In this document: one piece after another, positions 2,103-35,688 of the stretch
How positions within the stretch are numbered: position 1 is the first letter of the stretch
Layout: the number at the start of each line of letters is the position of its first letter
Source of the DNA: Candidatus Bathyarchaeota archaeon
Lineage (GTDB): Archaea; Thermoproteota; Bathyarchaeia; Bathyarchaeales; Bathyarchaeaceae
Reading direction: 5' to 3'
Length of the DNA: 64,000 bases
Assembly (NCBI GenBank): GCA_963697165.1
Contig: CAVOMX010000009.1
Location: 1 to 64,000 of the forward strand
Position numbers and translations under genes: made by a program
The notes under the pieces: model-generated
Told to the model about the DNA's origin: nothing
The model's database searches: none
What the model saw: the letters and a program-made list of their open reading frames with translations, nothing else

Positions 2103-2127
2103 GTGGTGGGGTCGCTGGGATTTAAAC
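2103..2127. repeat. Degenerate att-like direct repeat of the tRNA-Gly 3' end
   Basis: GTGGTGGGGTCGCTGGGATTTAAAC versus GTGGTGCGGTCGCCGGGATTTGAAC at 35611-35635 (3 mismatches). Confidence 0.75.
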
Positions 2128-3575
2128 AGGGGATGTGTGCGAGGACTGGAATTTCTGCCAAAAAAGGTAGATTTTCGGTTGGTTAAGCTGTGACAATCGC
2201 ATAAGCGCCCTAGCAAGCTCCTCGGTGTCAGTATTTTCCAGCCATTCTCTGTAATCGTTGGTTGTGAAGCGTCCATGTGCTCCAGCGATTCTTCTGTTGT
2301 AAGGATAACTAAAGCTTCCTAGAATTTCCTTCACCTGCGGAACTAGTCCCTTGAGCTTTCGTTTGTTGTATTCTGGAACAGCCAAAAGATAAGATGTGAA
2401 ACCTAATTTTTCGAGTTCAGCAACAGCCTCAAGAATCGACTTATCCGGTTTAGACTCGCAGACTCTAGTCATTCCAGCATGCTCAGCAAACGGATTGTAT
2501 CGAGCCATCACTGCAATCATCTCCACATAGGGTTTACCGCACAGAGGCAAAGACTCTCGCAGCAGCTTCACAGAAGCCCCAATCGTCCGGTATTTTGGAT
2601 GAACAACAACACGAGTACCCGAGCACAGCTTCTCGTTCAGCTCCTTCATGCTCTCTGATCTTCAAGAACTGTGGATCTTCCAGGAGCAGCACTCATAGGA
2701 TACGTGTAAACCACAGCCCCACAGATCCGATCCTTCCGCTTTAGAACAAACACTTTCAGCAAAAACGCGATCCTGTGACTCCTATAGTGGAATCCAGCAA
2801 TCTCCATCCAATCCTGATATGACCCCTCCTCAACAGTCATCTCATCAAGCAAACTGCAGCTCTGCTCTCGGCTCATTCGGGAAGTAATCAACTGTCACTT
2901 CACGCCCAAACCGCTTATGAATATGCACAGAAGGCGCCAGATCCTCCAGCAGATCCACGTGCGTAGTCGCAGCAACAACAGCTTTGCCCAGCTTCCGAGC
3001 CAGCTTCTGAACATTATAGGCAACGATCCGTGCAGTCTCCCGATCCAGAGTAGCGCAGAACTCGTCCATGATCCACCACTGAGCCCCGGACTCGATCAGC
3101 TTCGCAAGCCTGTAACGATACTTCTGTCCATCACTCAACTGACTATAACGGCGCACAAACAGGAAGGCATCATTCAACCCCACCTTCGAAAGCAGCTTCA
3201 GCCCCTCCTCAACAGACTCGCCCACAGTATCAATCAGAGGCATGTCCGGATCAACCTCAACCTCACTCAGTCGAGCAGCTTCTCCCGGAGCAGATCCCCA
3301 ACAATAGCCTTCAGAAGCACACTCTTCCCGGAGCCGCTATCTCCAGTCAAATACACAATATCCTGTGGACCAATCTGCAGCTGCACATTATCGTAGAGCA
3401 CATGCTGCTGAGACTCGCTGATTCCCATTCCAAAGGCTTCAGCTACAGCAACCGTCCGATCTGTTATGTCTGTCCTGGTCTCGTAGCCAATATCGAAAGT
3501 GAATTTGCCCGACTCCCGATCATAACGCCGGGCAAACTTCCTGATCCTAAAATCCTCTCTTCTCTTATGTCTCAA
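2122..3575 (-). CDS. ABC-type ATPase fused to GNAT-like acetyltransferase (split over 4 ORFs by indels)
   Basis: Walker A GDSGSGKS, signature LSDGQKYR, Walker B WIMDEF, H-loop ATTH, then the GNAT motif RVVVHPKYRTIG; no membrane permease nearby. Confidence 0.8.
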
Positions 3576-3727
3576 CCTTCATCATCCTCTTCATCATGAT
3601 CCCACGGAAACCGCCAACCATGCCGCTCCTTCTCGTGCAGCAAGATACTGTGAGCAGCTAAACCCACAACGAAACTGGCAACGCAGCCAACAACAAAATT
3701 GATTAAATCAATCAAAACAAGCCCACC

Positions 3728-5150
3728 CTAACTAAACGCAAACTGATCCAACTCCAGCTTTTTCATTTCGATAGTAGCATACACACTAAGAGCAACAGCC
3801 CACCAAACGTCATCATGAGTCCCGTGCGGATGACTAAAACTGATGGCGCCATCTCTCCGCAACTCGAAACCGTTCAATATTCATTTCGCTGCAGATATCC
3901 CCCCTGTAGGGCTTCTCCCACGTCAGGAACGGATAGAAGAACCGTTGACTCATCATCCGCTGCTTCAACAAGACTAGCCATCTCGCTCTTCCTGGAAGTA
4001 TTGAAGATAACTCCCTCAACGTTGCCGATCCCAGCTTCCTCCATGTCACTGATGATGCTTGGTCCTTCTCTCGTGTTGTCAACTCGAATCTTCTGGAAGC
4101 CCTCCCAACGGTCCTGCAGAGCCTTCAGGTAGCCAATCACAGTCGCGTATTTTGTGGGCTGATGAAAAATCTTGAGATGCCGAAGCCTCAGAACATCATT
4201 CACACGCTCCGACACAGCCAAGACACAATAGTCTCGGGTCTGAGCTAGATCGATGCCAGCAAACAGATCCCCACTATAACCCTTCGTTATGTCCCATGGC
4301 TGCAGATCCTCACCACAGTTTTTCTCGGTTCCAATGCAAGCAGCAATCAATGACATAGCCAGCCAGGTGTCCTCGTCCTCTGCCCACTCAGCCTCCATCT
4401 CACGGCGCCATCTCATCTGGTCCTCGCCAAACTGTCTCCGGATCTTATTGAGGAACGACGAGCTCCAGGGACCATCCGGGGCCATAACCCGCTCAAACGA
4501 AACATGATGACGCGCAAAATCAGTATAGTCCTTGTGGTTGCACATCTTCCAGAAGAGACTATCAGTATTGAAAGGCGTACACGTAGCAAGCAGCTTACCG
4601 TTAGTGGTCCCCAACGCAAACAAGATCGCATCCATCAGATCCACATCATTAGCAGTAAAATTGACTTCATCCCACCAAACCCGATCCAAAGTGTAGCCTC
4701 GGATCGTGTCCGCATTATTAGGAAAAGCCTCAATCACGCTACCATTAGGAAACTCGAGTCTAGTCTTCTGAGGCTTCAAATACATGCTCTTAGGCAGCCG
4801 CTTCTCAAACATGGATATCCTGCGAATATTCAGCTTAGTCTGGCGCCAACTGGGACCAACAACAGCCAAATGAGAATCAGCCTTAGCCAGGGCATCCGTC
4901 AAAAGCAGCCCCGAAGCAATCCAGCTTTTCCCGACTCTGCCGGCACCATCGAGCAGCAACAAACTGAAACTTCTTGTAAAGCTCAATCAACTCGTCCTGA
5001 TAACTGAAAGGAACAAACCGAAGATACTCACGACAAAACTCGCTATAGTCTCCAGTAGCCTTCCGGGTCTCTGTTCACGTCTAACTCGTCCACTTCAGCA
5101 GCGTTACCCTCAAGACGCCTAGAACGCCCACCAAAATCAACAGGTCTTAG
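3728..5150 (-). CDS. Terminase large subunit (frameshifted)
   Basis: Walker A region ARWCRQ(S)GKS, Walker B VWWDE, RNase H-like GIDLA and a C-terminal HPHGTHDDVWWA read manually to the stop at 3728. Confidence 0.9.
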
Positions 5151-5590
5151 TGTTCTTGCGTCTTTCCTGAACAAGCTTCTCATATTTTTCATCCAAATCA
5201 ATCAGTTTAGCTTCAATCCTACGATAATCCATGTACTCAGCGATCTTCACCTGATACACGGCAGCCGACTGAATCAAGAGCCCGCAAACGCATAACCTCA
5301 GCCTTTGACAAGTCCAGGCTTCTCCAACTCCATCATCGCAGCAGCAGCAATCTTCAAAACAGTCTCAACACTAGGAATCTCCTTAGGCAACACCAAAGTA
5401 GAGGATGATAGGACCGCAGTTATTTTCAGTCTTTATTTTCTTCTACTAACCCATACGCTTATCATCTTTTGCGGATAGCATTCTCAGTTTTCCCAAGCAC
5501 CTCAGCAATAACCCTAATCGATTTGCCAGCATGCAGCATGCTCCCTAAGAAATTCTCCATCCTCATTGGTCCAATGCTTCCCAGCCAAAA
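5140..5590 (-). CDS. HTH protein, candidate terminase small subunit (frameshifted)
   Basis: GKSIRVIAEVLGKTENAIRK HTH followed by a helical region (..YMDYRRIEAKLIDLDEKYEKL); lies immediately upstream of TerL. Confidence 0.5.
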
Positions 5591-5594
5591 CAGG

Positions 5595-5848
5595 TCAAGC
5601 CCCCACTTTAGCCTCCAGCTGCCGCCACTGCTTAAGCGCCTCATAACCCGCTGCGGACGTCCTATAGAATACCCGTTTCCCAACTACCTTCTCGACAAGC
5701 AGCCCCTTCTCAATTAGCTCAGCAACATGCTCATTGAGCACAGCATTGTTCACATTCGTGCTGATACATCAAATGCGTTAACTTTATCTGACGCATGCAA
5801 GCCTCCAAAACCGCAAACTTTTGCTCAAGCCTATTCCGTTTCGTCAAT
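5595..5848 (-). CDS. Small winged-helix DNA-binding protein (frameshifted; not in ORF track as such)
   Basis: Manual translation KRNRLEQKFAVLEAC..THLMY..NVNNAVLNEHVAELIEKGLL..VFYRTSAAGYEAL, an archaeal wHTH pattern. Confidence 0.55.
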
Positions 5849-5865
5849 ACTTTCACCGACCTCTC

Positions 5866-6171
5866 TCAAGTCCTCTTTCCAACAAAAATGCCAGAAAGCG
5901 TCCCGGACAAACCCGAAATAGCAGCAAAAATCTCACTATTCCAGCTCCCCAACAACACAATATGCACAAGCTCCAGCCCCGAAAGTAACCCTGTCATAGC
6001 TAGCCCAAACTTGACAACAATAACGAGCTTCTCGTCAGGCTCCTCAGTAACCACGCGGCCACGCTGGATGCGCTTCCTAGCAAGAGCTCGTCTAACCCAC
6101 CCGCCAGTGTTCATGAACGCTACTCCTCCTCTGAAAAATTCTGTTATGGTTACTGGACCTGTGACCGCCAA
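5866..6171 (-). CDS. Small 2-TM membrane protein (holin-like candidate)
   Basis: Two C-terminal hydrophobic helices; within the viral operon. Confidence 0.5.
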   Translation of the reverse strand: MAVTGPVTITEFFRGGVAFMNTGGWVRRALARKRIQRGRVVTEEPDEKLVIVVKFGLAMTGLLSGLELVHIVLLGSWNSEIFAAISGLSGTLSGIFVGKRT

Positions 6172-6179
6172 GCAAGAAA

Positions 6180-6514
6180 CTGTTTACAAGACTCCCGGGC
6201 AATATTCTCAGGAATATGCGCCTTCGCTAGCACAGACACATCAAGCGCCCAACCCTGCAGGAATGGCAGTATAGTCCAGATCATACAAGCCGTCACAATA
6301 GCGGAAGCTGTTTTGAGCCAAGCACAATATGTTTAGTTCGTTGCCCAAAAACGCCAACATACAAGCCCCAGCTCCTCACAGGAATATCAATACTCACGCC
6401 GCTGCTGCTACTCTTCCCCACGCTAGCATCGCACCATTCAACGCAAACAAGATCTCCCGGACGCAAAGAAGCAAACACTTTCTTTAGCTGACTACGAGTT
6501 ACCAAAACAAACAC
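6180..6514 (-). CDS. Viral hypothetical protein (frameshifted)
   Basis: ORF GDLVCVEWCDAS.. continues in another frame as QNSFRYCDGLYDLDYTAIP. Confidence 0.5.
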
Positions 6515-6517
6515 CCC

Positions 6518-7140
6518 TCAAACTGTGGTCCTCAGAGTGTAGCTAACAACCGCAATGTAGCCGTCTGCAACTGCCTGATTTACTAAGTCATGAGCGACAA
6601 GGAAATAGTACGTTGAAGTTCCAATAATCGCATGTCTTACTACCCAACCAACTTCTCTAATAGTAATTGAGCCTCCGCTTCCATTAACGAAGGTTCTTGC
6701 GATAACCATGTCAACATTAGCGCCTACAACAGCAGCGGCTCCAACAGCGCAGCTTCCATACTGAAGCTGAGATGCTGATGAACCGTGAGCAATCAGAGTT
6801 TCCATAGCATTATCTGTATTAGTTGGAGTTGTTGTGCCTGTTCCGACAAGGATTCCATATAATGCATTAGCTGCTTCTGCTTCGCTGCACATTAAACGAG
6901 TATGATACTGCCCAATGTTGAAACTCGAGTTTCTAGTAGTGCCTCCATAATCAACGATAGAAACATAGTCAGGGGCAACTTCCCATTTGTTAGCAGTCAA
7001 CAATTCCATTAACTGAAGAAAAGCTTTAACGAAACTATGGCTAGGGCGATCACCTGTAGTTTTGACAAGTTTACCTGTTTTCGGATTAAAAATATCAACT
7101 CGGACAAATAGCTTAATTGTTGATGCTCTATGTTCGAAGG
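6518..7140 (-). CDS. Tail-tip or tail fibre-associated structural protein
   Basis: GILVGTGTTTPTNTD and ITIREVG motifs typical of tail fibre/baseplate N-terminal domains; frame is open upstream of 7009. Confidence 0.55.
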
Positions 7141-7427
7141 TTATTTAGCCTAAGCTTTAGGTCTTGAGCATTCAACCCTCGAATGTGAGCTGCTATTTTT
7201 TCAGAATCAAATTTTAGATTTGTTTTCAAAGTTTTTTCCTCATTTACGGTGGATTAACATCAATATCTACGCTCAAACCAAGACTCAAGACTGTAGGATC
7301 CAAAATGCCAGTATCAACAACAGATATGAAAGAAGCAAGGAAGGTTGAACCAACACCAATCTCAGTCACTTCTCCCTCATAGGCTTGAGAAACATAGGAT
7401 GTAAAATTAAAGACCTCATTTCGGGTC

Positions 7428-8361
7428 TTAGATGAGCTCCTCTAGAATATCCTCAGTTGTCCGCTTTGTCCGATTTAATTCAATATCGCATCTAGTACGA
7501 GTCTTGATCAGCTTCGCAATCCTATAGGACCCCGAAAGGTTAGACTCAGCCTTCGTAACCGTGATAGTGTCTCCTGGATGAAGATGCTTAGCGTAAGGAA
7601 GCGGGCAGCTCAACTTAATTGCAGAATCATCTAGGTTTACTTGATCTAGCAGCTTAGCAGCCAAAAGATTAAGAGTAGTTTGGGTAGTCGCAAAATTGCT
7701 CCAGAAAACAGCAACATCATCACCAGATCCAGCAACGCCCAGGAGCTCGTCTCCATCAGCATTAAAGCCCCTAACATGCACCTTATCTCGGTTCTTGCTG
7801 CGGTCGACTCCCCTGCAGGTGACCTTCGCTTTAGATGAATCAAAACTTTCTGCCGAACCGCGAGTGCCCAAATACAAAGTGTCGCCGTCTTCAACCCAAC
7901 GGTCACAATTACATGCCTTCTGGACCTCAATCATAGCATCAAAGCATAAGGTCTGATCAAAATTCAGGTCAAGAGCAGTAGAGGGACAAGACCCCAACGG
8001 GTTTAGTAAGCGAAGCTGCAACCCGGATATCCTCCATAATATCGTCAGCTGCAGCAGCTTCATAGGTCTCGGAAATAACTCGCCGCTTCATCAGCTCGTA
8101 TATGCCATTATAGATAACGCATTTGAGCTCCTTATTCGAGTATTCAACAGCGAATAAGGCACCTAAAAACTGGAACTCAGCATCATAATAGATTCGCACG
8201 ATCTGATCAGAAGAAACAAACGTCCGATTCGCAGAAGTGTTAGCAATACTTAGGGTAGCCTCTTCGTGGCCATTCAGCTCTTCAACAACGGCGCCGATTC
8301 TACCTGAGAACTCAACCCAATCCTCTTCGCCATCATCATAATACTCAAGAGTCCAACCCAA
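7428..8361 (-). CDS. Tail hub/baseplate (Tal-like) protein, frameshifted
   Basis: Position after distal tail gene; C-terminal LHPGDTITV..GSYRIAKL motif. Confidence 0.55.
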
Positions 8362-8372
8362 CAGAAAACCCC

Positions 8373-8732
8373 CTACAAAACTATGTGGCTGCTCCCCTGC
8401 AGCAGCTTAATTTTATACGAAAACTGTTTAGCATCCAACTCAACATAGCTAAAATCTGCAAGAATCCAGCTGCCATCATATCTGCTATCAGGAAAGGCTA
8501 AGGTTACTTCGGTGCCCCTCAAGGCCTCAAGCGGAGACAAATAGCTTGATTCAATCGTAGCCTTAACCCCAACAAAAAAGCCCTCCAGAGTCAACTCTAC
8601 AGCAGACAATCCGGGAACGATCAAGACTGGAGAATCTCCATCTAACTCAAAAGTCTCAACCTTAGCAGGATTACGTTTGCTAGCTCGAGCAGGAGCAGTA
8701 GGCAAAGTAACAGCGCCTATCTGCGTAACTCA
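8373..8732 (-). CDS. Distal tail (Dit-like) protein
   Basis: Beta-rich ~120-aa ORF directly after the tape measure gene. Confidence 0.5.
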
Positions 8733-8734
8733 CA

Positions 8735-9791
8735 ATAGACGCCTCCTAAAGCCCTCAGCGATACCTTCACTTACAGACTCGGTGACTTGAGCAAGATCAA
8801 ATTCGCTGCTGATGTTCTCGATGTTGATAACTGGATTAACTGTGATGTACTGGTAGTTTCCCCACCTCCAGATCCATCTGGCTTAAGAGGAATAACTGCT
8901 TCGGGTCCAGCTTCTCCAATTAAAGCCAAAGTTGGTTTGGTTACGATCCCACCCTCAGCCATGCCGACAGCAGCCTTAACCCCAGCTATGCCTACTCCAA
9001 CAGCAGCCAAAATGATAGGAACTGCAACACCGACTGTCATTGTGCCATGAAAAGCCATCCAAGCAACGGTTGCGGCAACTATTGCAGCGATTGTAGCAGT
9101 CAATGCTCCAGCGATTGCTCGCATGTCCTCTGGAATAGCGCCCAAAATGGTGTCTGCAACCAAAAAGCCGCCCATAAACGCGGCTACACCAATAGCAGCT
9201 GTCTTAGCACGATATCCCAATATTGCCAACGCCATCAGAAATTTTCGTCAGCAGCCCGCTCATATCAGGCATATTCTTCCAGGCTTTACTCAGACTATCA
9301 ACCATCGTAATCGAGGTTGGAATCACCTGCAAAGCAGCACTAAAGATGGTTTCATTCATACTATCTTGAGCATCTTCAGCAGTCTGAACAGCTAAAGCGT
9401 AACGATCCTGGGCAATCTCAAGATTGGCAGTTGCAGTCTCAGCCTCAGCAGAACCATACCCATACTTTTCAAGAGCCTTATTCAATGAAGTCTGAGCATT
9501 CTCTACACTGTTATGGCTTGTTTTAACCTGAAGGTTTGAACGATCAACCTTCAGCTGAGCATCTCCAACACTCCCATAAGCATTATAGAGACTAAACGCT
9601 GAAGTGGCTACCCCACTAAAACCGGTAATCAGGTCCCTGCTAGACTTGACAGTTTCTTTCTGAGCAGCAACAACCCGTTTGTTAGTAGCCTCAACTTCGC
9701 CCATTTCTTTCTTGATTTTTGTGCTAGCGTCCGCTACTGTTTTGCTTGCCTCATCATACGCCTTGATTCGGATGTCAATTTGGCTGCTCAT
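8735..9791 (-). CDS. Short tape measure protein (~350 aa, frameshifted)
   Basis: N-terminal IDIRIKAYDEAS, Ala-rich helical body, hydrophobic stretch and C-terminal MAEGGIVTKPTLALIGEAGPEAVIPL motif. Confidence 0.8.
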
Positions 9792-10336
9792 TTCCTATTT
9801 CTCCGGTCATACCATCTAGCCCATGTGCCCAGAAACTTCACCTGCAATACTGACAGTCCACGAAGAGTCTCCAAGTTATACTGAGGAAACTTGTGCAGAA
9901 TCAGCCCGATCTCTTGCGCCTGCGGGTTATTTTCGAGCCACTCTGCGAGGTCTTTGTAGCTGATAAAAAAGCAGGCTGCTTAGTCAAGAAGTCAACCAGC
10001 GCAGCAGATTCAATCAGCGGCATCCGAGCCAAGAAGTCACTGGGAAGATCTGGGTATGCCTTTTTTAGCATTAGCCAAGCAACTGTCTCGGTCTTCTCAA
10101 CGTCCGATTCGCATTTGTTGATCTCGAAGGCATCCCTGAAAGTCAACTCTCCAAACAGCAGCTTGCCTAACGTTGGATGCTCAACAGAATGGATCTTGGA
10201 TGCGCGGTCAATCAGTCGGACAGGATCAAAGATCTTGCCCTTAACTCGCATGAGACTCTTCGTGGCTCTCAAGCTCCGCTTCGAATTTAGCTGCCCTCTT
10301 GTCATTCTCTTCCTTTTGCTTCTGGGTTGGCTTCAT
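9788..10336 (-). CDS. Tail assembly chaperone G/GT with predicted programmed -1 frameshift
   Basis: In-frame slippery heptamer T TTT TTA (plus strand 9964-9970); the -1 frame is open for 58 codons and its TGA overlaps the tape measure ATG. Confidence 0.75.
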
Positions 10337-10348
10337 CAGATCTCACGC

Positions 10349-10738
10349 TTAGCTATCAGTGACCGTAACGCTCTTCGCTTCGCCATCAACCTTCTCGAGA
10401 ACTGCTCCAGTTTCTCCCGCTGATCGCTCAACATTCAGGACCACACAATCGCTCCAAGTTTCGTAGGGCGCAGTTTGGTAAGATCCGCTAGGCTGAAACA
10501 CAATATCAAACTCGGTTCCAGCTAGAAGCAGAGTCATCCAAGAACCGTTAATGTAGAGCTTTTCAGCACTCCAGCTGAAGGTTTGTTTACCGGCGCCAAC
10601 AACAGCAGGAGTCAACGAATCCATACTATAGTCTTTGATCAGCTCCGCAGAAGCCTTGACGCTAATGTTTTTTCCATAGCCAATCACTGTGCCGTCCTTG
10701 TAGAGACGAGCATTCCTTCCCAAAACAGGGGTACTCAA
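10349..10738 (-). CDS. Major tail tube protein
   Basis: 129-aa beta-rich protein upstream of the chaperone and tape measure genes; GKQTFSWSAEKLY motif. Confidence 0.7.
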   Translation of the reverse strand: MSTPVLGRNARLYKDGTVIGYGKNISVKASAELIKDYSMDSLTPAVVGAGKQTFSWSAEKLYINGSWMTLLLAGTEFDIVFQPSGSYQTAPYETWSDCVVLNVERSAGETGAVLEKVDGEAKSVTVTDS

Positions 10739-11250
10739 TTTTGTCTAATTCCTCCAAATTTTTCATAGTCTAGAGAAGCCGGATATCCGACCTCTTTTCT
10801 AGCCAAGTTTCCCAAAAAATCACAAAGAGCATCCTCAGCAAAATCGTCAACATGCGAGGCGATCAACTCGTCAGGCAAACAGCTGATGTCCATGTGCCAC
10901 TGCTCCTTGATCCAGCGTTTAAGCCGCTGCGGATCCTTCTCTCGACCCGCCCACTCATCAGAACAAAGCAGCATAGCCAAACCAACCCACTTTCTATAGT
11001 AGGGATCATCCTCGCTGAGCCTAACCAAAATCTTGCGGCTAACCCTGAAGTAGCCTCTCAAAATTGCCGTCAGGCTGCTTTCCGAAAGTGCCCTGAATGA
11101 CAATCGAGACGATACACCTTGAACATACGGTCATATACCTGCTGGAGCATCCGAGTCTGAGGAAAATGCACAAACCTAGGCTCGGACGGCAACAGCAGAT
11201 CCACAAGCCGCAGTGGAAAATTTACCAGCCGCTTGAGCAGGATCATTCGT
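10735..11250 (-). CDS. Viral hypothetical protein (frameshifted)
   Basis: ORFs 11070-11399 and 10735-11103 appear to join into one gene within the operon. Confidence 0.45.
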
Positions 11251-11253
11251 AAG

Positions 11254-11717
11254 TCACGGTGCATAATGCAGTACAGCCTCCCAGCGGACAACCCCGCCAT
11301 AGAACGTTTTTTCTTTGAACTTGACTTCTCCAGGAGCAAAACCGATAGGAGTACAATCAAAGGCAGCACCCCCCAGAGTACGATCAGCGAGTAGCGCATC
11401 CACGACGTCGCCCATGACTGCTATAATATCATCAAACCAATCCTTCGGTTCATACTCCAGAATAACCAAGAACAATGCTGCCCCGAACTTTAGTTTCAGT
11501 CACACTCTCCCATCGTTAATTGTCCAATCGGCGAAGGCTCAGCATTAATAATAGCTTTAGGCAGCCCACCAACAGTGAAACTGCTCCCCAAGAACCACAG
11601 TCTTGATTGACTCAACGCCCTGAGCAGGACTCCCAGGATCTTCACCTTCAGGCGGAACAGCAGGCACATACACAAGCGCCGCTTTGATAGCATCAAAAAC
11701 AGCCTTGTAGCTAGCAT
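11254..11717 (-). CDS. Tail terminator/completion-like protein (frameshifted)
   Basis: ALLADRTLGG motif and position between neck and tube genes. Confidence 0.55.
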
Positions 11718-11724
11718 AGTAACC

Positions 11725-25882: not shown

Positions 25883-27739
25883 TCAGATATCTATTGCCTC
25901 AGCGTAAGTTGCACGGATAATTTTATCTCCGAACAAATTTTCAAAGAGTTCTGGGTTCATTGTATGAATGGGTATGATTTTTGTTGGATTAATTTTCTGT
26001 ACAAGTTCTTTGAGTTCATTTTGTGAAGCGTGTCCAGAAATGTGCTGTCTAACGAAAACTTTTATTTTCTCATCTGAATTTTCTTTTTCTTTCAATTCAC
26101 TTTCATATTTTACATTGAAAGTAGTCGAGCCAATTCATGAATTTGGATTCATCAATTTCCATCTCTTCGTTGAAAGGTTCGGTGGAAGCCGAAATGTATT
26201 TGGTTTTATGGTCCACCGAATCTTTTGGAATTAGGTCAAATAGTTCGTTTGCGTCCCAGAATGAGAACATTAAAATGTACTTTGATGGATCTTCTCTAAT
26301 CTGATAAGCTCGGACCCCATTATTGAGATGATGTGTTGCTAAGTCATAGATTTCTTGGAAATCATATTCTTCTCCCTCACTTGATTCAGGCAAAGGATTA
26401 TTGGCATTATGTTGGATCTCCACCAAGACCTAATCTTTCTGCAATGCGAACAATATTGCAGTCCTTCTTCGCCACGTTTCTTCCGTGGAAATGCAAATAA
26501 CCCATCTTGAATTTGTCGTAATCCGTCTTAGAATACAGAGAGTCACCTTCACGTTTAAGATACACTCTCAGATTAGACATTGTTACTCGGATCATCATAT
26601 TCGGTGGGAAAATTAACATGCATTTCATAAAGTAGATAAGCAAGCTTTGGTGAAATCACAAAACTTCTATCATTTTGAATTGCAGCGTCATAAATGATTT
26701 TGAATCGTGATAGATCTTTCCAACCAAAATTAATTAGAACCAGACCCTTCAGCTTCTTCAATTTCTGTATTAATTTTTGCTGCTATGTCTGCTTCTGTTA
26801 GTATTGTCTCACTGTCAATTCGAGTCCCCTCAGTAATCATAATATCAATTTTTCCACCGACTTCTTGTGCATATTCATCTATTGAAATATCATTTTCACC
26901 ATGGAAACGAAGGTCACCTGTGTATAAGATCCGTTTTCCTTCTGGTGGAACCGTTAATAGTATTGAACAAGCTCCAGGAACAGAATGTCCAACTGGTATC
27001 ATTTTGTATGTGATGCCTTTGATTTGACCTTCTGAATTAGTTTGAAATAAGTCGATACTTGGGTTCCGTTTCGTGAGTGAAACTAAATTTGGTTTTTGGA
27101 TCATAGATAAGTGGATTTCCTTCCTCTTTTACTTTTGAATATTCACATTCACCTGGACAAAGAGTCTTGTAACTCTCTGACTTTTGGGTTATCATATTTT
27201 CTTTTCTAATTTCGTAGAATTGCGAATCAATATGAGAAGTCGAAACATCATTTATTGTCTTGGCGAGAATCTTTGCTTATGTTACTACAGTAGATCGGTA
27301 TTTTCGGATCTAGAAAACTTATGTCTTGAATATGATCGAAATGTGCATGAGACACAAAAACGGCATCAACAGCTGGATTTTCTGAATCACATGGACATAC
27401 ATTTTCCATTGTCCAATAGTCTGGAGCTTCATCAACTGGAACTTTATCTTTTATTTCATCGTTTTCGAACATTGTGGTTGCATCGACCAGATGCTTTGCA
27501 TAAATACCATCAATCTTTGGTAATATACCGAGCCTGATCATGTCTCTTAGAGCATTTTTTGATCGGATTTGAAGAAACTCTGAAAAGTAATCTTGTGTGT
27601 AACCCATTCTGCGACCAAAATCTAATAGAACAGAACAATTATCTGTTTCAAGTAGAATTTTGTTTCCACCTATTTCGTCAACTCCACCATAAAAAGTAAT
27701 TTTAGACAAAATTATATCTCCCATAACTAGGTTATGCAA
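25883..27739 (-). CDS. MBL-fold beta-CASP (RNase J-like) hydrolase, split by several indels
   Basis: GGVDEIGGN, SHAHFDH, GHSVPG, YTGDLRFHG, HISGHA, IIPIHT motifs. Confidence 0.8.
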
Positions 27740-27852
27740 ATCGTATAAAATCTTATTGTTTGGAAAGAGGAATAAACAATAAGAAAATATTACCCAAAAA
27801 CTAAAATATTAATTAATTAAAATCATATGTATTATTTAACACGGGGGATTTT

Positions 27853-27984
27853 TTGTCAGATTGTGTTTTAGTTAGAGAAACTTGTGGAGTAGCTTATCCT
27901 TCAAGAAAAATTTGCGAGCAGGAAAAGAATTGTACGTGTTGGAGCAAGGTAGGCTGTAGAGGTATCTACCCGAGAAAAGGATAG
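27853..27984 (+). CDS. Possible 43-aa six-cysteine peptide
   Basis: TTG start after a GGGGG RBS-like run; LSDCVLVRETCGVAYPSRKICEQEKNCTCWSKVGCRGIYPRKG; 13 bp before the next gene. Confidence 0.35.
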   Translation: MSDCVLVRETCGVAYPSRKICEQEKNCTCWSKVGCRGIYPRKG

Positions 27985-27997
27985 ACTAACGATTGGG

Positions 27998-28522
27998 ATG
28001 TTAATGGCTAATAAAGAGTCAAAAAAAGAAACAGAAATAGACCAAATTGCTAAAACTTTGGAAACGATTTCATTAACCTTAATAAAATCTAATAAGGAAA
28101 CTGAAGAAGATCGGATGGCCAAGATGTGGTGCAAAGTAAAGTCCGACCTTTATGAAAAAGGTCTTGATGATCTTGATGCTACTGCTAAATCTCTTGTTAC
28201 TTTGTCTTCGGCTTTGATTACGGTAGGATTTACTGTGATAGGAGGATTGGTTGGTACTAATTTATTGAATATGTCTATTGAATCACTTTGGATTGCATTG
28301 TTAGGATTCGGCTTTTTTATGGTATCAACCCTTCTAAATATTCTTGTTATATTTAGGTGGCCACTGAAGATTGAACAGTTAGCTGAAGCTTTTGATATAT
28401 CATCAGCATGGGTTAGAATACGTGATAAAAAATATCAATATTTAAAATGGGCTTACTTATCTTTTGGAGTTGGAGTAATTTTTGTTACAATAGCAATTTT
28501 CTTCTTAATTTATCTCGGATAG
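27998..28522 (+). CDS. 3-TM protein resembling Pycsar-type (DUF5706-like) membrane effectors
   Basis: D..AKSLV-TM, TM ending in P, IRDKKYQYLKWA-TM pattern. Confidence 0.5.
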   Translation: MLMANKESKKETEIDQIAKTLETISLTLIKSNKETEEDRMAKMWCKVKSDLYEKGLDDLDATAKSLVTLSSALITVGFTVIGGLVGTNLLNMSIESLWIALLGFGFFMVSTLLNILVIFRWPLKIEQLAEAFDISSAWVRIRDKKYQYLKWAYLSFGVGVIFVTIAIFFLIYLG

Positions 28523-28751
28523 ATAAACATGAAGAATCATAGAGTTGCATTATCACACCACTTTTTGGCATAAACCAAAATCAATTAAAAACTTTCCTTC
28601 ACGTATATTTCTCAACGGATAGTCGGAATATGGGTAAAACCCATTTGCCTGCTTTTTGTTCCCCTAACCATCTTTGAGTCTTATGAGAATTAAGTTTTCT
28701 CCTGATGACATCCCATATTATCTTAAAACAGTAATTAAAAAAATTGTTACA

Positions 28752-31700
28752 CTATTTTACGTGCGTAATTCTGGGGTAAATTTTTTCGATATTCTCCAAT
28801 CCTTTTGTAATGAGATAAACCATTGCTTTAACATGAGCATAATACATGTGTGAAACATTATAACCGAGTTCTCTGGCAACTACACCAAACCAACGGTAAG
28901 GAGAGTCTGAACGATTTGCATTGAAAAAGAGTTGCCCTTTTTCGTTGTATCCATCAGTTACTTCTTTGGCAACACAAATATTAACAGTCTCTGGATTGCA
29001 GCCCATAACCTCTACAATCGTCCTTGTTAACTTTCTCAATTTTTTAATCTTTTCAATTGATGGGATTTCTATTCCTTTCTCAAGATAAATTTCTTCACCA
29101 TCAACAGATGTTAGTTTCCAGTCTTTAGGAGAGATCATTTTTACCTCAACAGTATACTTAAATGCAGATGGACTTCCGATCGATACAATAGCTTTTTTCG
29201 CTCTATAGCTCTTGTTTTGGTAAAACTCTTCTTCCGAAGGTGTTTCTTGCTACGACTTTCGTTGCCTCAGATCTTGCCCGAGCTAAGTTAACTAGCAAGT
29301 CTTCTGATGTGAGATTTTCCAAATCTATGGTTTTTTGTTTCGTTTTTAGAATTTCTTTAGGTTTTTTAATTTCAAAAGATTCCTTATGGATTTCTACTTT
29401 TGGCGGTAAGAATTCGGGAACATGTTCATGCATATGTGTTTCTCGATTGTATGGACTAACACCCATTATTTGTCCATGTGTAAGTAGCATCGGAATTGCT
29501 AAGTTCCATCCAATTTTATTTACAGCAGGATTCAGACTGTTTAGAAGATTTAATGTTAATAGACGTAAATGTTCAGGTTTGTGAAGCTGAAATGTTCTAT
29601 CCAAATAGAGGGCACTTATGTTCTTTTCGTAACAACAAACATCATGAATTTGCTGTCCGTTATGTTTTCCATCCCGACCTTCCAACAAATATAAAACTTC
29701 TAGATTATTTACACCATAAACCTTCATTTGTTGAAATTCAAGATTATAATCAGATAACTCTCCTGTCAATGAGAATTCCAAACCATCAAGCCAAGGTAAT
29801 ATAGATTGAAATTTTTCAGTTAGTGCTTCGTTAAAAAAAACCTTACTTTCGTCTGTTCTTCTAACGGATAGAGATGTGGCAATTTCGTTCATTCCCAAAC
29901 GGAGATATAATTTCTCATGTTCTGCGCATTCAGCCTCAATAAGTGGAACTGATATTCCTGTTCGGATTATTCTTTCGTAAATTATTTGTTCACTTTTTCG
30001 TAAAAGAAAACATTCAGAGGGTAATCTTAGTCTTGGTTCCGAAGTAACGATAACCTTCTTATTGCTTAATTTTTCGATATATTTCTCAGGTATTGTGTTT
30101 ACAAATTGAATGACCTTAGAGTAGGAATAACGAAAAAGGTTAATTTGCCAGGATTCGGGGACTTCATCTTTTATATTATCAGCTGCATCAGCTAACCATT
30201 CCAAGTAATCATACGGATTTTGGATGGTACTTTTTATGTCAAGTGCCAAACACAACCTGTTTATTTTGGACAATTTGTTATTTTTTAGATAACCTCTAAG
30301 CCACCCATTAGGACCGAAGCAGTTACTATAATCATGCAAATATAGCTTTTTAGGATTCCACAATCTCCCTTTGAACCATATTGTTCTATTATCCCGCAGT
30401 TTCTGCAAGTGATCATTGGTTAGTAGGTTTACTCTTCGATTTAAAAAAGAGTAGACTTTAAAGTTTATTCGTTTATCCGATTCACCTTTTTCTTCTCCTC
30501 TTTGGTTTAGAATAAATTCGATAACATCATCTAGGCGAGCTTCAGTAAGTAAGCCAAGGACCTTGACAAGATTCTTATTCTTTGGACTTCTTATAGCAAG
30601 GAATTGTTTTGATCTACCTACGAGTTCTTGTGTTCTTTTTTTAACATAAACGTCAGTTGGATATTCAAATTTCATTTTATTAGAAGGCATCCATCGGTAG
30701 TTTCTAGATTTCTGTAATTCTTCGGTGTGTTTTGAATAATATTTTTTCCAATGACTATCCAAAAATGTAAGAACTCTCTCTACTCTAATAGCGTTTTTTG
30801 ACGAAAATTCAACAGATTCCATTTCCTGAGCAATTGTGATGATAACATTAACATTTGGAAGGTCTTCAACTCCAAGTTTCCTAAAAAAGCTTTTCCATTT
30901 TATTTTATCCTTTTTCCCTTGTTCTTCATATCTCGGACTGAGGTAGTTGAGTTTTTCTTGAAAAATGGTTTTTAGTTTGATGTCTGAAAAAAAAATTGGA
31001 TACTCCGTCTTATCAGTATGCTCCGTTATAATAATATCTTGGATTTTTTCCTTAAGATCTTTAATTATGGCTGGTTTTCGGATTACATCACGTTGTCGTT
31101 TCACAAGGTACCAAACAAACTCAAATTTTTGTTCATTATTATATGAATTAACTCTTGGCAAAAAACTATCCAAGATCAAATGGTTCAAATCGATTTTTTT
31201 TACTTTCAGCTTTTTTTGAAGAAATCTTCTAGCTGCGATTGTATTATATGTCAAGTGATGAAGTATGTCATCTTTGTTAATGAGAGGCATCTTCTCATCT
31301 GTCGGAAAAAAAACTTTGTATTGAAAAGAACGAAGAATTCCTTCCTCAGTCAGCAATATACAAATTTTCCTTAGTTTCTCTATTAGGATAGACGGTATGG
31401 AGTTATTACCAAGATATTCAAAAATTTTCTTAATTTGGTTCGATTTCTCTGATTTGTTGCTGTTATAAGTGGAAGTTCCATATTTAGATTCAAGATAATT
31501 CACAAAATTCTCTAGTCCATAATCGTTTATGTCATAAGACAGAAACACTGAAGAATAATTCTTGAGGGACGGGTGAATCAAATAGATTCCTGAATCGTCT
31601 TGGAGGACTTTATGGAGTCCATTCCAATTCATGTAGAGTTGGTCATTATTCCGCCAAACATTTTGAGCAGTATAAAATAGTCGGATTTCTCCAGCTTCCA

Positions 31701-32862
31701 CCTTTTTCTTAAAAGAATTACACAAATACTCATCGAATAAAGGCTGAAATTGAGAATATGAGGGAATTAGCTCACATACGGTTCTTGGATTTACTTTTCT
31801 TGAGATAAGATCTTCAAAAACAAGTGATAAAAGAGTGGCAATATTATCCATTTGCCAAAGGTTCCAGTCTCGTTTCAATCCTTCTTTAGTGACAAATTCA
31901 CTTCTACCTGACGTAGTATAGAATTTTGATGTATTATATTTGAAATTAAGATCAGTGGGGATTACGGGAAGAGTACAATATGCATAATTTTTTGTGATCA
32001 ATTGTTTTCTTATTCTTCCTCCTGTTAGATTTATAGGGATAGCTAGTTCCACTTTTTGTTCTAGCTTTTGCTCTAACGCATTGAAGTTCGGAGGAACCGC
32101 TAGTCCTTGGAGAGAATAAAAAGACCAATTTTCCATACTCCTTTTTTTTCGTTCATTTGTTTGGGATATTATGCGAATCGAAACTAAATGACGTTTAAGA
32201 TTTTTATTGGTATCTTCTGTGTGACTAATTTTTTTGGAAACAGAAAAAAATTTTTCTCCCTTTTTATATGCCTCGATTTTTCTAACAGTTTTTAGGAAAA
32301 AAATATCTTGATATACTTCCGAGAGGAGTTGCTCTTCAAATTTTTTTAGTTTCTTTAGATCAAATAGTTCTGCGTTTATCTTCTTGGAGATTTCAGTTTC
32401 AGCCAAACGAAGAGGTAAATAAAAACGGGTAATTCTATTAAAAGGAACTAAACTTATGGATGGGACCTCGTTAATGTGAATTTCAAAATCCCAACCATTT
32501 GAAATAATTCTTGGTTTATCAGTAATGTGAAATACAGACGTGAATCCTACACCAAAAGTTCCCGTTAATTCTTCTTCTGTTTTCCCTATTCCTATTTTAG
32601 ATATCCGATAAAAATCGGAATCTTCTATTTGGTTGACTTCACTAGGCTTTGAAAAAGGATCTCCATCATTTTCTACTATAATTTTTTCATCGTCAATTCT
32701 AAATGTAACTGTAGTTGCATTAGAATCATCGGCGTTTTGGATAAGTTCTCTTATAATAGGCATTTCTCCTGGGTATTCATCAATCCCTATTGCTCTAATC
32801 GTGCCAAAAGTGTCAGGTTTATAAACAAAGTCTTTCAAATCATAATCTGGAACGTCAATCAA
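28752..32862 (-). CDS. Sacsin-like GHKL ATPase protein with zincin-like C-terminus (1219-aa and 128-aa ORFs, probably one gene)
   Basis: RELIQNADD, VENDGDPF, TGTFGVGFTSVFHITD motifs; tail GYNEKGQLFFN..WFGVVARELGYN. Confidence 0.7.
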
Positions 32863-32987
32863 AAAATCACCCCTATTGTCTCAAAACATAAATGTCAAGT
32901 TACATAGTTATATTCGTTTTTCACCAATTGTAGAAAAGTAAAATATTCTGGAACATCTATTCGCTAATTCAAAAAATGATTGTAAAC

Positions 32988-33100
32988 TAAGGGGTAAATT
33001 TAGACCTATAGTTTTACCCCTTATGATTTCTTACTGTAAGGGGTAAAATTAAGTCTCGATTTTACCTCTTATGTTTCCTTACTGAATAGAGTGGTAAAAT
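32988..33100. repeat. Tandem ~48-bp repeats each containing an inverted repeat TAAGGGGTAAA..TTTACCCCTTA
   Basis: Units 32988-33036 and 33037-33084 plus a degenerate third unit. Confidence 0.8.
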
Positions 33101-33406
33101 AGTGTCTTGCTTCTGCCCCGAGTCAATTGTGCTTTCAATTCACTTCATTTTGTGAACGTGACTTTCATATGCTGACGCTACCTCTTTTTTTATTTACAGC
33201 GTCAGCTAAAACAAGTTGGTTGGTTGGTTGGTTGGTTGGGTTAAATTTTAGCCCCCACACACAGATGTACGTGTTCGTGTTCGCGTTTACGTACGTGTAC
33301 GCGTGTGTTTACGCCCGCTCGCCTGCTCTCTCACTCACACGCCAAAAAAAGAGAATAAAAACAAGAACTGAAATGTTATTAGTGAATTATAAAACAAAAG
33401 GTATCT

Positions 33407-34291
33407 ATGAAGAGAGAGGACATATCTGGACAACATATCTTTTCGGCTAATATTTGGTCAAAAATGCTTTCCAATGGAAAAAAATTAGTTGAAAATGGAT
33501 ATTCGGAGAGTGCCAATAAACCTAATTTGTTCTATTCCAAAAAAGACTATGGAATATTTTTTGCAGACATGAGAGGAACTAAGCTAGCACCAATTTGGAA
33601 TGATCCTCGACCTCTTTTCTATTGGATATTCGATAATGACCAACCTTTATGGAAACATAGGAGACAAATAAAGGAGGAGTTATTGAATCTGGAAAAAAAT
33701 AATGTAGAGTATTCATTATGCTTAGTTGTTGAGAACCTACTGTTTGAACAGAGTAATGTGATTGGGGATGAAGTGAATCTTATTTTTCCATGGTTTGATG
33801 GATTTTGTGAATTCTGTGGAAAAGATTTTCAAAACGATGGACGATTTTGCTCGATAGAATGTGAAAAAAAGTGTATAGAAAAAATTGAAAACGAGCAAGA
33901 AGAACAACGGTTATGCTTGATTAAAGAAGGTCCATTAATCGAATGTTGTGTTTGTAAGAAAAACACGCAAGAGAATCCTGAAACTGTTTATCACAAGCAT
34001 CATGTATCATATTTTCCAGAAGAAATAGTGATAACTTGCTTAAGTTGTCACCAAGCGATCCACAATACAGAAGAATATCCGCATTTAAAACCGAAAAATA
34101 TTCGATTATTAGCTAAAGAAATAAGGAAACTGGAAAGAATAGCTAAAATTGAATTAACAAAAAAGAACGGTACTTTTTCTAAAAATTATTGTTCTCTATG
34201 TGAAAGAGAAATTAAAATTAACCAATCATACTCGTTTTATTGTGGAAAAAAAATTCACACAAAATGTTTTGATAATAAAACAGATTTATAA
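33407..34291 (+). CDS. Cys-rich protein with HNH-like nuclease motif
   Basis: CxxC pairs and HKHHVSYFPE..TCLSCHQAIH. Confidence 0.6.
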   Translation: MKREDISGQHIFSANIWSKMLSNGKKLVENGYSESANKPNLFYSKKDYGIFFADMRGTKLAPIWNDPRPLFYWIFDNDQPLWKHRRQIKEELLNLEKNNVEYSLCLVVENLLFEQSNVIGDEVNLIFPWFDGFCEFCGKDFQNDGRFCSIECEKKCIEKIENEQEEQRLCLIKEGPLIECCVCKKNTQENPETVYHKHHVSYFPEEIVITCLSCHQAIHNTEEYPHLKPKNIRLLAKEIRKLERIAKIELTKKNGTFSKNYCSLCEREIKINQSYSFYCGKKIHTKCFDNKTDL

Positions 34292-34421
34292 AAATAATTC
34301 CGTTTTTACAAACTTTAGTCTTCAATCGGAGCGATGTGTCGTTTTTATCTTCCCTGCTTCCAGAATTCTATATAAACAAGAGAAAATGTTACTCGATAAC
34401 TTCGCAAAACCCAAAACAACA

Positions 34422-35384
34422 TCAGCAAATATACCCCTGATCCTCCCCTGACTGCTGCTGCGAAGAGTCTACCTGACCCAACCTCTCAGCCTCCTCCGGA
34501 ACCAACAAACGATTCAAAGTCTCAACGAGCCCACTAACACAAACAGTCAAACCAGCAACCTCACGCTGCACATCCTGAATCTGCAACTCAAGACGACCCA
34601 ACCGCAAAGGCATCAACAACCGCGCCTTCGCCAAATCACGCCCAACATACTCCTCATGAGGAACCCGCTCAGGAGGACTATTATCAATCGAACCAACATC
34701 TTCAACAATCGTGGTCCCCAACTTCACCAACTCCTGAGCCTCATCACTATAAAACCGTGTAATCGGTTCATGCAAAGGAACACCAGGCTCCTCCAACGCC
34801 AAATCAAAATGACACTCCAACACACCCTTCACCCGCTCAACAATCCGTCCAGAAAGCATCAACAACTCATCAACATCAAAACCCCGCAACTTACCCGGAT
34901 GCACAATAACACTCTTGCTAGTCCGCACAACCCGCACAGCCCCAATCTTAACACCCAACTTCTCCCAATTACGCGGACGCCCCAACTTCCGCCAATCCAA
35001 ACGATCAGCGCGTCCCCAATCCAAAACCCCAAACTTAACAGCATAATCCTCCAAACAACAAACCTCCTCCGGAACACCACTCTCACTCGTAGTGAGGATC
35101 TTCGAACCGTAAGGCGTCAAAGCATACTCATTGAACACATCCTTCACAACCAACCGCAAAGCACCAGCGCCAACAAACTTGTTTTTCCAATAATTCACAG
35201 TACTTTTACTGCAAGGAACAGCCTCTGCAACATCACGAGCACAGTTCCCAGCACCCAACAGCTTCAAAATCAACTGCGCCTTCGCACTCAACCCAAGAGC
35301 AAAACATCCCAACCCCATAAGAGTTCTAAAATCGTATCGAACTGTTCGAACTGGTCGAACCGCAACTTTTCTTTCGGGAGCCAA
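34422..35384 (-). CDS. HTH-containing protein of the element, candidate replication/regulatory protein
   Basis: ARDVAEAVPCSKSTVNYW HTH; same strong G/T coding-strand skew as the virion genes; C-terminal coiled coil. Confidence 0.6.
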   Translation of the reverse strand: MAPERKVAVRPVRTVRYDFRTLMGLGCFALGLSAKAQLILKLLGAGNCARDVAEAVPCSKSTVNYWKNKFVGAGALRLVVKDVFNEYALTPYGSKILTTSESGVPEEVCCLEDYAVKFGVLDWGRADRLDWRKLGRPRNWEKLGVKIGAVRVVRTSKSVIVHPGKLRGFDVDELLMLSGRIVERVKGVLECHFDLALEEPGVPLHEPITRFYSDEAQELVKLGTTIVEDVGSIDNSPPERVPHEEYVGRDLAKARLLMPLRLGRLELQIQDVQREVAGLTVCVSGLVETLNRLLVPEEAERLGQVDSSQQQSGEDQGYIC

Positions 35385-35405
35385 ATAGAAGACACCTCTA
35401 GAAAA

Positions 35406-35528
35406 CTATTCCATTTTTTCCTCTATACACAAGGGACATTCAACAAGCCTAGCCACAATCTGATTACCAACACCCACAAAAGTCCATTTGCTGCCACAGC
35501 CTTCACAAGATATCTTCTGCTCACTCAT
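35406..35528 (-). CDS. 40-aa zinc-ribbon protein (below ORF-track cutoff)
   Basis: MSEQKISCEGCGSKWTFVGVGNQIVARLVECPLCIEEKME, two CxxC. Confidence 0.55.
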   Translation of the reverse strand: MSEQKISCEGCGSKWTFVGVGNQIVARLVECPLCIEEKME

Positions 35529-35611
35529 AATTTAGTGCTCCAAAAATTCCATTAAACAAAAAAAGAGGGGAAGGTGAAAAAGTACAAAATAGTACGTATT
35601 CGTTTCTAAAG

Positions 35612-35688
35612 TGGTGCGGTCGCCGGGATTTGAACCCGAGTACCCGGCTTGGGAAGCCGGGGTCCTGACCAGGCTAGACTACGACCGC
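35612..35688 (-). tRNA. tRNA-Gly(CCC), CCA encoded, no intron
   Basis: GCGGTCG acceptor stem, anticodon arm CCGGC-TTCCCAA-GCCGG, GTTCAAATC T-loop, ACCA end. Confidence 0.95.

Follow-up and report, generated by a model that had tools for sequence, protein, structure and literature searches.

The window analyzed here comprises the first 64,000 nucleotides of contig C9 (CAVOMX010000009.1) of the Bathyarchaeota genome assembly G000 (1.99 Mb in 25 contigs, 81% complete). It contains a 33.5-kb element inserted at a tRNA-Gly(CCC) gene, which we interpret as a temperate head-tailed provirus of Bathyarchaeia (HK97-type capsid, Caudoviricetes-type). As assembled, none of the long structural genes of the element is a single open frame, and these frameshifts are most likely consensus errors. 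We assign this interpretation a probability of about 0.7. The virus genome behind it is probably intact or nearly so; its genes would be intact in nature, and its replication would rely on the host. The host is a Bathyarchaeia archaeon, as indicated by the gene at the tRNA-proximal end of the element (34422-35384), the named homologs of which are assigned to 'Candidatus Bathyarchaeota/Bathyarchaeia'. Further support comes from the capsid protein: when genome contigs were scanned with it, a single locus was matched, L023, in a metagenome-assembled genome (MAG) of Bathyarchaeia. Viral contigs scanned with a capsid fragment gave no relative.

In the proposed scheme, site-specific recombination would place the virus in the 3′ end of tRNA-Gly(CCC), beside the gene for lysyl-tRNA synthetase (LysRS), and a partial copy of the tRNA would be left at the far end upon integration. 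Read from the tRNA inward, the integrated genome would then consist of an end gene whose product combines a winged helix with a domain weakly resembling the TATA-binding protein (TBP), a 12-kb low-GC cargo block with defence-like genes, a morphogenesis operon (portal, protease, decoration, capsid, neck, tail, and large terminase, in this order), and a gene for an ABC/SMC-type ATPase.

The borders of the element are marked by two attachment (att) repeats of 25 bp, one of them within the 3′ end of the tRNA gene (Table 1), which is the arrangement of flanking direct repeats by which a provirus is recognized. The coordinates of the repeats, as well as the drift of the distal copy at 3 of 25 positions, agreed exactly with those in the initial annotation. 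The distal copy was the sole such match in the window, and two matches were reached in none of 100 shuffled sequences. The sequence of tRNA-Gly is identical to that of genomes G001 and G018. The LysRS-tRNA-Gly adjacency was kept in all six genomes compared, and the DNA beyond the tRNA was different in each. In genome G003, tRNA-Gly(CCC) is followed by a 6.3-kb island (G003:C4:about 27210-33566), at the end of which the tRNA 3′ end is repeated with mismatches at 2 of 25 positions; this is a further use of this integration site. In the complete same-genus genome G005, the locus holds a remnant of a related element (Table 1). From the different contents of the locus, the island of G003, and the remnant of G005, we conclude that tRNA-Gly is a recurrent landing site.

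All recognizable morphogenesis genes lie on the minus strand, between positions 21081 and 3734 (Pfam scan of 59 open reading frames, ORFs; PHROGs scan of 30 ORFs). They include an HK97-type capsid gene, the set of portal, protease, and large terminase, and genes for tape measure, neck, and fibre, as expected of a head-tailed virus. The capsid had 175 homologs at E ≤ 0.001, and among the 120 listed most were 284-297 amino acids (aa) long; these are sequence matches, and the HK97 fold is predicted from the family. The gene order is collinear with relatives: with contig L027 from portal to capsid, with L023 from portal to the genes upstream of terminase, and with same-genus elements in the tail, terminase, and ATPase genes. 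The ABC/SMC-type ATPase is encoded directly downstream of the large terminase in every relative of the virus family compared. Its intact copy in genome G014 (L015:5128-6567) gave weak PADLOC matches to mad3, mad8, and LmuB. One of the three small conserved genes upstream of terminase may code for the small terminase.

To describe the broken frames, the genes were aligned to intact relatives. Compared with the intact 489-aa copy in G014, the terminase of the window passes through frames -3, -1, -2, -3, and -1 (five segments). In contig L027, which has 85-88% nucleotide identity to the window, the portal, protease, decoration, and capsid genes are open. Against it, the portal runs in frames -2, -1, and -3, the protease in -1, -2, and -1, and the capsid in -2, -3, and -1. 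The portal and the ATPase are each split over at least three frames. The alignment to intact coding sequences resolved the breaks into single-base events: three insertions and two deletions in the portal gene, three insertions in the protease gene, one insertion in the 155-aa gene, and two in the capsid gene (at 17314-17317 and 16954). In the nucleotide alignment, the terminase gene showed at least three net +1 events and the ATPase gene one -1 and three +1 events. Examples of the extra bases across the element are those near positions 2653, 2668, 2859, 3866, 3973, 4933, 16954, 17314-17317, 18410, 19224, 19249, 19582, 20031, 20142, and 20194. No substitution-type stop was found in the reference frame of the portal, capsid, 155-aa, terminase, and ABC-like genes, and no sizeable deletions were found in the well-aligned genes.

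Where several relatives could be aligned, the extra bases lie at polymorphic sites, and two alleles seem to be written one after the other. At position 18410, the window reads GAC, compared with GA in L037 and AC in L027. At position 16954, it reads ACGA at an Arg codon, which is AGA in the relatives. The extra base at 17314 falls on the third position of a Gly codon that is variable among relatives. The initial annotation had proposed to examine the ratio of nonsynonymous to synonymous substitution rates (dN/dS). With the single-base events read through, the pairwise values were 0.09 for the capsid, 0.21 for the portal, 0.20 for the protease, 0.04 for the terminase, and 0.07 for the ATPase, and two further genes of the element gave 0.15 and 0.26. 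This overall range of 0.04-0.26 indicates that the genes are functional now or were so until very recently. The capsid differs by a few residues from intact relatives, and intact capsids of 292 aa, 97-99% identical and belonging to a 33-member cluster, are present in assemblies from JGI, ENA, and Logan.

A control was carried out with host genes. We took all 225 ORFs of at least 200 aa found in 20 stretches of G005, each 20 kb long and evenly spaced, and 117 of them had an ortholog at ≥60% identity in G000. An ortholog was regarded as whole if a single alignment covered at least 90% of it with no stop. By this measure 90 of the 117 were whole, 18 (about 15%) were found in two or more frames, and 9 failed on coverage or a stop only. 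By a uniform chaining rule, we counted 30 frame changes in 124.5 kb of host genes, i.e., 0.24 per kb, with a range of 0-0.86 per kb among samples. The split host genes include those for the alpha subunit of phenylalanyl-tRNA synthetase (PheS; four segments), SMC, ArgG, ArgH, homoserine dehydrogenase, HisD, V-ATPase subunit I, Rio2, and RsmB. No free-living archaeon could do without this whole set of genes.

The breaks in host and element share one signature. Among isolated 1-nt events, insertions outnumber deletions 15:4 in the element (7.6 kb), 8:1 in a second related element of the same genome, on contig C8, and 21:4 in 16 broken host genes. In 30 of 44 cases, the inserted base was the transition partner of a base next to it (expected fraction 0.43; binomial p = 7e-4), and the inserted bases were not enriched in homopolymers. 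Since this signature occurs in the element, in the C8 copy, and in essential host genes alike, the frameshifts are most likely consensus errors of the metagenome assembly, in which extra bases were added at polymorphic sites, and very likely most of the breaks are such artefacts. The open frames expected of a working virus are split here by the same artefact-like insertions as those in essential host genes. A consensus built from mixed variants would be the source of the extra bases. Proviral regions are highly polymorphic in metagenomes, and a mixed-variant consensus would therefore explain why they are hit more densely. The same artefact may also lower the completeness estimate of 81%.

Two other explanations of the breaks were considered and rejected. 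Reassignment of a stop codon was dismissed because the breaks are frame changes and not stops of one kind. Homopolymer-type sequencing error was dismissed because the inserted base equals its neighbour in 13 of 44 cases, compared with an expected fraction of 0.43.

Public metagenomes provided a further view of the element. Near-identical pieces of it were found in runs of 16 studies. Among 20 runs of these 16 studies, the best share of the 31-mers of the element was 0.38, and none reached half; the RNA run X20 contained a share of 0.10 of its words. Contigs from four studies (X1, X2, X5, and X7) were compared with positions 2001-22000, which revealed 1461 variable places in 20 kb. Among the 12 indel rows shown of 157, nine lack a letter that the window has and three have an additional one; at least seven of these rows coincide with frameshift sites. 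Within this covered stretch, the cargo beyond 21.3 kb was barely reached by contigs of other runs, and such thin cover is no finding in itself.

Several observations weigh against our interpretation. By the chaining rule applied to host genes, 11 frame changes were counted in 10.0 kb of the element, which is an undercount, and the breaks are thus at least 4.6 times denser than the host mean (p = 4e-5); the density does not exceed the 0.86 per kb of the most affected host sample (p = 0.25). Part of the breaks could therefore be genuine decay masked by the artefacts. At position 18409, the metagenomes differ from the window only in part of the depth: 267.7/415.7 in X1, 7.9/19.8 in X7, 0/21.5 in X2, and 0/18.9 in X5. 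Because of such partial depth at this and similar sites, the state seen in the window may occur elsewhere too. Out-of-frame N-termini were found in other assemblies for 4 of the 14 listed members of the capsid cluster. The locus of tRNA-Gly in G005 holds a true deletion remnant, so elements at this site do decay. There is no integrase in the assembled element, and the att copy at its far end has 3 mismatches in 25 positions.

Some of these observations also speak for the alternative that the element is a decaying, immobilised provirus relic, in which at least part of the frameshifts are real, the integrase has been lost, and no particles are made. This was at first our leading interpretation, and the initial annotation had also named a relic by genuine decay as an alternative. 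It agrees with the fact that nearly all long structural genes are split, at a density above the host mean, with the lack of an integrase and the mismatches of the distal att copy, and with the deletion remnant at the same tRNA in G005 and the even more broken second copy on C8. The frames do look broken; however, the same insertion-dominated, non-homopolymer signature in essential host genes demoted this explanation to a rival. It also has to contend with the allele-merge look of the extra bases, the lack of nonsense substitutions and of sizeable deletions in the well-aligned genes, the low dN/dS, and the close similarity of the capsid to intact relatives. We consider the relic unlikely.

To look for genes of integration and replication, the whole of G000 was searched in six frames with protein families. 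The tyrosine recombinase family PF00589 gave 11 matches genome-wide and none in the window, and PF00239 and PF09250 gave no match genome-wide. PF00493 matched the host MCM on C14 only, and PF00136 two host genes on C25 only, with none in the element. Consequently, there was no match to integrase, resolvase, MCM, Prim-Pol, or PolB between the two att copies, and the Pfam, PHROGs, and genome-wide family searches thus bore out the initial annotation, which had reported no integrase, MCM, primase, or polymerase there. The assembled part of the element therefore lacks the integrase expected of a temperate provirus. The contig starts 2.1 kb past the distal att copy, and because of this the integrase may lie off the contig; we infer that it was lost, lies past the contig start, or is an enzyme of an unrecognized kind. 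The main element of G005 encodes a 395-aa tyrosine integrase 4.7 kb past its ATPase gene. In G014 and G005b, the genes that follow the ATPase are of island type and include integrase-like proteins of 499-520 aa at 11-12 kb, in regions that are not syntenic with the window.

The end gene (34422-35384) had been named in the initial annotation as the place where an integrase or replicase fold might be found. It adjoins the tRNA here and in G005, and it also lies at one end of the main element of G005. Its 320-aa product has 207 homologs, and those with a name are from Bathyarchaeota. An AlphaFold (AF2) model from an alignment of 34 sequences had a predicted local distance difference test (pLDDT) score of 77 for the whole protein, and of 85 for the C-terminal domain modelled alone. 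The N-terminal domain (residues about 30-105) is a MarR/ArsR-like winged helix (Z about 9), which was the only part clearly matched. The best hit of the C-terminal domain was TBP (Z 6.5; root-mean-square deviation 4.2 over 134 aligned residues), followed by the RepDE initiator (Z 4.6), both within the noise guide of the tool, and no Foldseek match in PDB was found at E ≤ 0.001. In BFVD there was one match (E 2.3e-4), an uncharacterised protein of an uncultured archaeal virus, and the nearest Atlas cluster was labelled 78% viral. Across the homologs, an H, a D, and an E of the C-terminal domain are invariant and a Y is nearly invariant. None of the fold searches with the end protein gave a recombinase or replicase match.

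According to a second alternative, the element is a complete temperate virus in which the end protein acts as an unrecognized recombinase or replication initiator. Its gene occupies the tRNA-proximal place where integrases usually sit, likewise in G005 at the same tRNA, and the many homologs with conserved H, D, E, and Y residues, the mostly viral Atlas cluster, and the weakly TBP-like fold, also weakly matched by RepDE, fit such a role. However, the matches of the C-terminal domain are all at or under Z 6.5, below the noise guide, and Foldseek gave no PDB match at E ≤ 0.001. The protein has no catalytic motif of a known recombinase, and the main element of G005 has an ordinary tyrosine integrase. 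We regard this alternative as quite unlikely. Less likely still is the wider proposal of a family of tailed viruses of Bathyarchaeia that integrate at tRNA genes by means other than a classical integrase, with the end protein, a winged helix joined to a TBP-like pseudo-dimeric domain, as recombinase or Rep_trans-like replication initiator. Since there is no recognizable integrase or replicase, and no such fold was found in the end protein, it is possible that the element is immobilised or dependent on functions in trans, as the initial annotation suggested.

The distribution of relatives bears on whether the element is a virus or a domesticated cluster. Of 24 other genomes of the genus, 12 carry the terminase type of the element and 1 carries its capsid type (32% identity). 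The related same-genus elements share with the window the terminase-ATPase pair and the small genes upstream of terminase, and their frames are open, whereas those of the window are split. The end gene is common to the window and the G005 element, in which the head module is unrelated at the level searched. In L023, the head and neck order is the same as in the window. Relatives with a common terminase carry unrelated head modules. No tRNA was found at the related loci examined. The cargo block between end gene and portal is strain-specific in the window element and in G005: the latter has a type IIG restriction-modification enzyme and a helicase/PLD protein, compared with the TmtA-like, Mrr_cat, metallo-beta-lactamase-fold, and DUF553 genes here. 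The patchy distribution, the differing loci, and the swapped head modules point to mobility rather than vertical inheritance, and this pattern is that of a mobile, mosaic temperate virus family and not of a vertically inherited gene transfer agent (GTA).

GTAs, of the RcGTA type or such as VTA of Methanococcus voltae, pass vertically through a host clade, in which they keep one fixed locus, and they are not known to have flanking att repeats. The initial annotation had considered an archaeal GTA-like or domesticated element, which would package host DNA, and had proposed to look for orthologous clusters and vertical inheritance. The element resembles GTAs in that its morphogenesis genes are not accompanied by an integrase or replicase between the att copies, and its tape measure is short (about 340 aa). 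It does not occupy one conserved locus, however; the counts given above are patchy, related elements are at other loci with no tRNA, and their head modules are swapped. The att repeats, the strain-specific cargo, and the near-identical pieces in runs of 16 studies likewise speak for a mobile virus, so a GTA-like nature is very improbable. A satellite dependent on a helper virus, also named in the initial annotation, is the least credible alternative, because known satellites borrow virion genes from the helper and this element, which does lack a recognizable integrase or replicase, encodes a full morphogenesis module of its own (portal, protease, capsid, neck, tail, and terminase).

Further members of the family were observed in G000. 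On contig C8, a second related element (L018; about 36500-55000) extends as far as the end of the contig. The terminase and ATPase copies in it are 81-85% identical to those of the window element, and their single-base insertions are even denser. The segment C8:37511-37712 has 82% identity to window positions 35501-35688, and ARAGORN calls no tRNA there; a weak integrase-like match lies at C8:38136-38264. On C10, a terminase fragment (82% identity, residues 298-341) adjoins a C-terminal fragment of a tyrosine recombinase (29.3 bits) at G000:C10:26055-26735, and this is a third remnant of the element family. In the G005 remnant, the ATPase gene may have been kept for its own sake.

The features of the element are collected in Table 1. 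Its composition is a mosaic. The stretches 2.1-13 kb, 15.6-21.1 kb, and 34-35.6 kb have a GC content of 0.45-0.51 with a C-rich plus strand, and the GC skew is -0.14 to -0.28 over 2-13 kb and 15-21 kb. In the stretches 13-15.6 kb and 21.1-33.5 kb the GC content is 0.33-0.36; the second of these is the cargo block (GC 0.33-0.35), with genes on mixed strands. The initial annotation had described all structural genes as one strand-skewed operon. The gene list and the C-rich plus strand are in line with this description, but the frames are split, the cargo at 21.1-33.5 kb lies on mixed strands, and the stretch 13.1-15.6 kb is low in GC. The variable stretch between head and neck genes contains a tandem duplication of ~1.2 kb (13282-15971) with units 88-94% identical, which includes both copies of an 80-aa winged-helix gene (14449-14676 and 15663-15887). 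Some metagenome contigs skip one unit of this duplication. In the cargo block, the 1219-aa TmtA-like protein is a candidate defence gene by its sequence matches. The PDB sequence search with the 631-aa protein (22945-24840) gave no match, and neither did Pfam, PHROGs, PADLOC, and PDB sequence searches with the 294-aa ORF (33407-34291).

Table 1. Positions of the features of the element (window coordinates) and of the related or control loci in other contigs and genomes
Feature	Position	Strand	Evidence or remarks
tRNA-Gly(CCC), integration target	35612-35688	-	ARAGORN; Rfam tRNA 61.2 bits; 3′ end towards the element
Proximal att copy inside tRNA 3′ end	35611-35635	.	tRNA 3′ end plus one base
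Distal att copy	2103-2127	.	22/25 identity to tRNA 3′ end
Conserved end gene, 320 aa	34422-35384	-	Pfam HTH_23 only; winged helix, weakly TBP-like alpha/beta domain, long helix
294-aa ORF	33407-34291	+	without any match
Cargo: 1219-aa sacsin/HATPase-type protein, TmtA-like	29203-32862	-	Pfam SACS 5.2e-24; PADLOC TmtA 6.5e-59
Cargo: metallo-beta-lactamase-fold gene in two pieces	26730-27739	-	Pfam Lactamase_B_2 on 26730-27104 and 27248-27739
Cargo: 631-aa protein, weak Mrr_cat nuclease match	22945-24840	+	E 0.0023, below Pfam cut-off
Cargo: DUF553 transglutaminase-like membrane protein	21631-22512	+	Pfam 6e-18
Portal	19734-21081	-	Pfam Phage_portal_3 on two fragments; tblastn; 446 aa in intact L027
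Head maturation protease/scaffold	18848-19729	-	DUF2213; PHROG head maturation protease; 373 aa in L027
155-aa head-module protein	18262-18727	-	tblastn; one single-base insertion near 18410
Decoration/cement protein, open frame	17783-18259	-	Pfam XM1_gp53_minor_capsid 4.4e-6; 85-88% identity to L023 and L027 proteins
HK97/encapsulin-type major capsid protein	16892-17838	-	Pfam Linocin_M18 3.3e-13, DUF6260, Major_capside; 292 aa in relatives
Variable stretch between head and neck genes	13095-16795	-	Repeats D1-D3; Mrr_N/HTH_45 Pfam; low-GC ORFs; homologs in L023 and G005
Neck and tail genes	9904-12453	-	Pfam; PHROG Neck1; tblastn to L023; four further L023 ORF homologs
Mu gp36-like adaptor	12184-12453	-	Pfam
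HK97 gp10-like neck protein	11813-12175	-	Pfam
Tape measure, about 340 aa in two frames	8771-9791	-	PHROG tape-measure families on both fragments
Distal tail and fibre genes	6518-8705	-	Homolog of G014 452-aa protein in 3 frames; C-terminal 163-aa ORF with tail-fibre match
Three small conserved genes upstream of terminase	5146-6502	-	tblastn to G014, G005, and L023 ORFs
Large terminase, T4-type	3734-5195	-	Pfam Terminase_6N; PHROG terminase; 482-489 aa in intact relatives
ABC/SMC-type ATPase	2143-3575	-	Pfam ABC_tran fragments; 473-479 aa in relatives
Related same-genus elements	G005:C1 about 620.6-649.1 kb; G014:C27; G003:C1; G008:C25		Terminase 68-87% identity
G005 deletion remnant	L019:13918-21885 (G005:C1:923918-931885)		End gene 308 aa; 633-aa gene on other strand; terminase C-terminal half 253 aa; ATPase 474 aa intact
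Split host genes of G000	PheS C16:48682-50199; SMC C12:118635-122181; ArgH/ArgG C25:135273-138077; also C17:51745-61836		

Several observations were made around the element. Synteny did not locate the far flank: the 81%-complete G000 gave no high-identity match to a conserved block situated after tRNA-Gly in G001, G018, and G003. Just outside the distal att copy, an MntP-like gene (1487-2050) has 48-51% identity to MntP of five genomes of the genus, in which the gene sits far from tRNA-Gly; it may be island cargo instead of core flank. The 23S rRNA gene lies at 43868-46935, in a block of GC 0.55, and is followed by RNase P RNA at 47224-47522; no 16S or 5S rRNA was found by Rfam in the window. 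At 56800-59200, on the minus strand, there is a homolog of PQQ/beta-propeller surface proteins of G005 (roughly 830 aa) in at least three frames. Outside the window, the last stretch of the contig (G000:C9:105001-115000) has a GC content of 0.70-0.72, compared with about 0.40-0.45 elsewhere, and looks like a chimeric join or contamination.

Head-tailed viruses of Bathyarchaeia have been described before, namely Fuxivirus (32 kb) and Kunpengvirus (PMC10848311), and eight further proviruses were defined by capsid, integrase, tRNA, and direct repeats (PMC11705971). By their published descriptions, the element has the same host class and, like them, an HK97-type capsid, portal, large terminase, and tail genes (PMC10848311, PMC11705971), and its size is similar to the small genome of Fuxivirus (about 32-34 kb; PMC10848311). 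Integration beside a tRNA with direct repeats is a criterion by which the eight proviruses were recognized (PMC11705971). Defence or counter-defence cargo is a further likeness (PMC10848311, PMC11705971). The element is set apart from Kunpengvirus by the integrase, MCM-like helicase, and PolB of that virus, none of which is found in the element (PMC10848311). The traits of the element are the terminase placed last in the operon and followed by the ABC/SMC-type ATPase, the winged-helix/TBP-like end gene, and the lack of an integrase in the assembled part.

The assembly itself calls for caution. Single-base insertions affect about 15% of conserved genes and are denser in the two proviral regions; whatever is taken for a pseudogene, decay, a split gene, or recoding in G000 must therefore be checked against the reads. 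The element adds to the known tailed proviruses of Bathyarchaeia: one more tRNA-integrated provirus, with defence-like cargo, joins the small set from this abundant, uncultured class of sediment archaea. The end protein and the terminase-linked ABC/SMC-type ATPase represent two uncharacterised, widely distributed virus-associated families.

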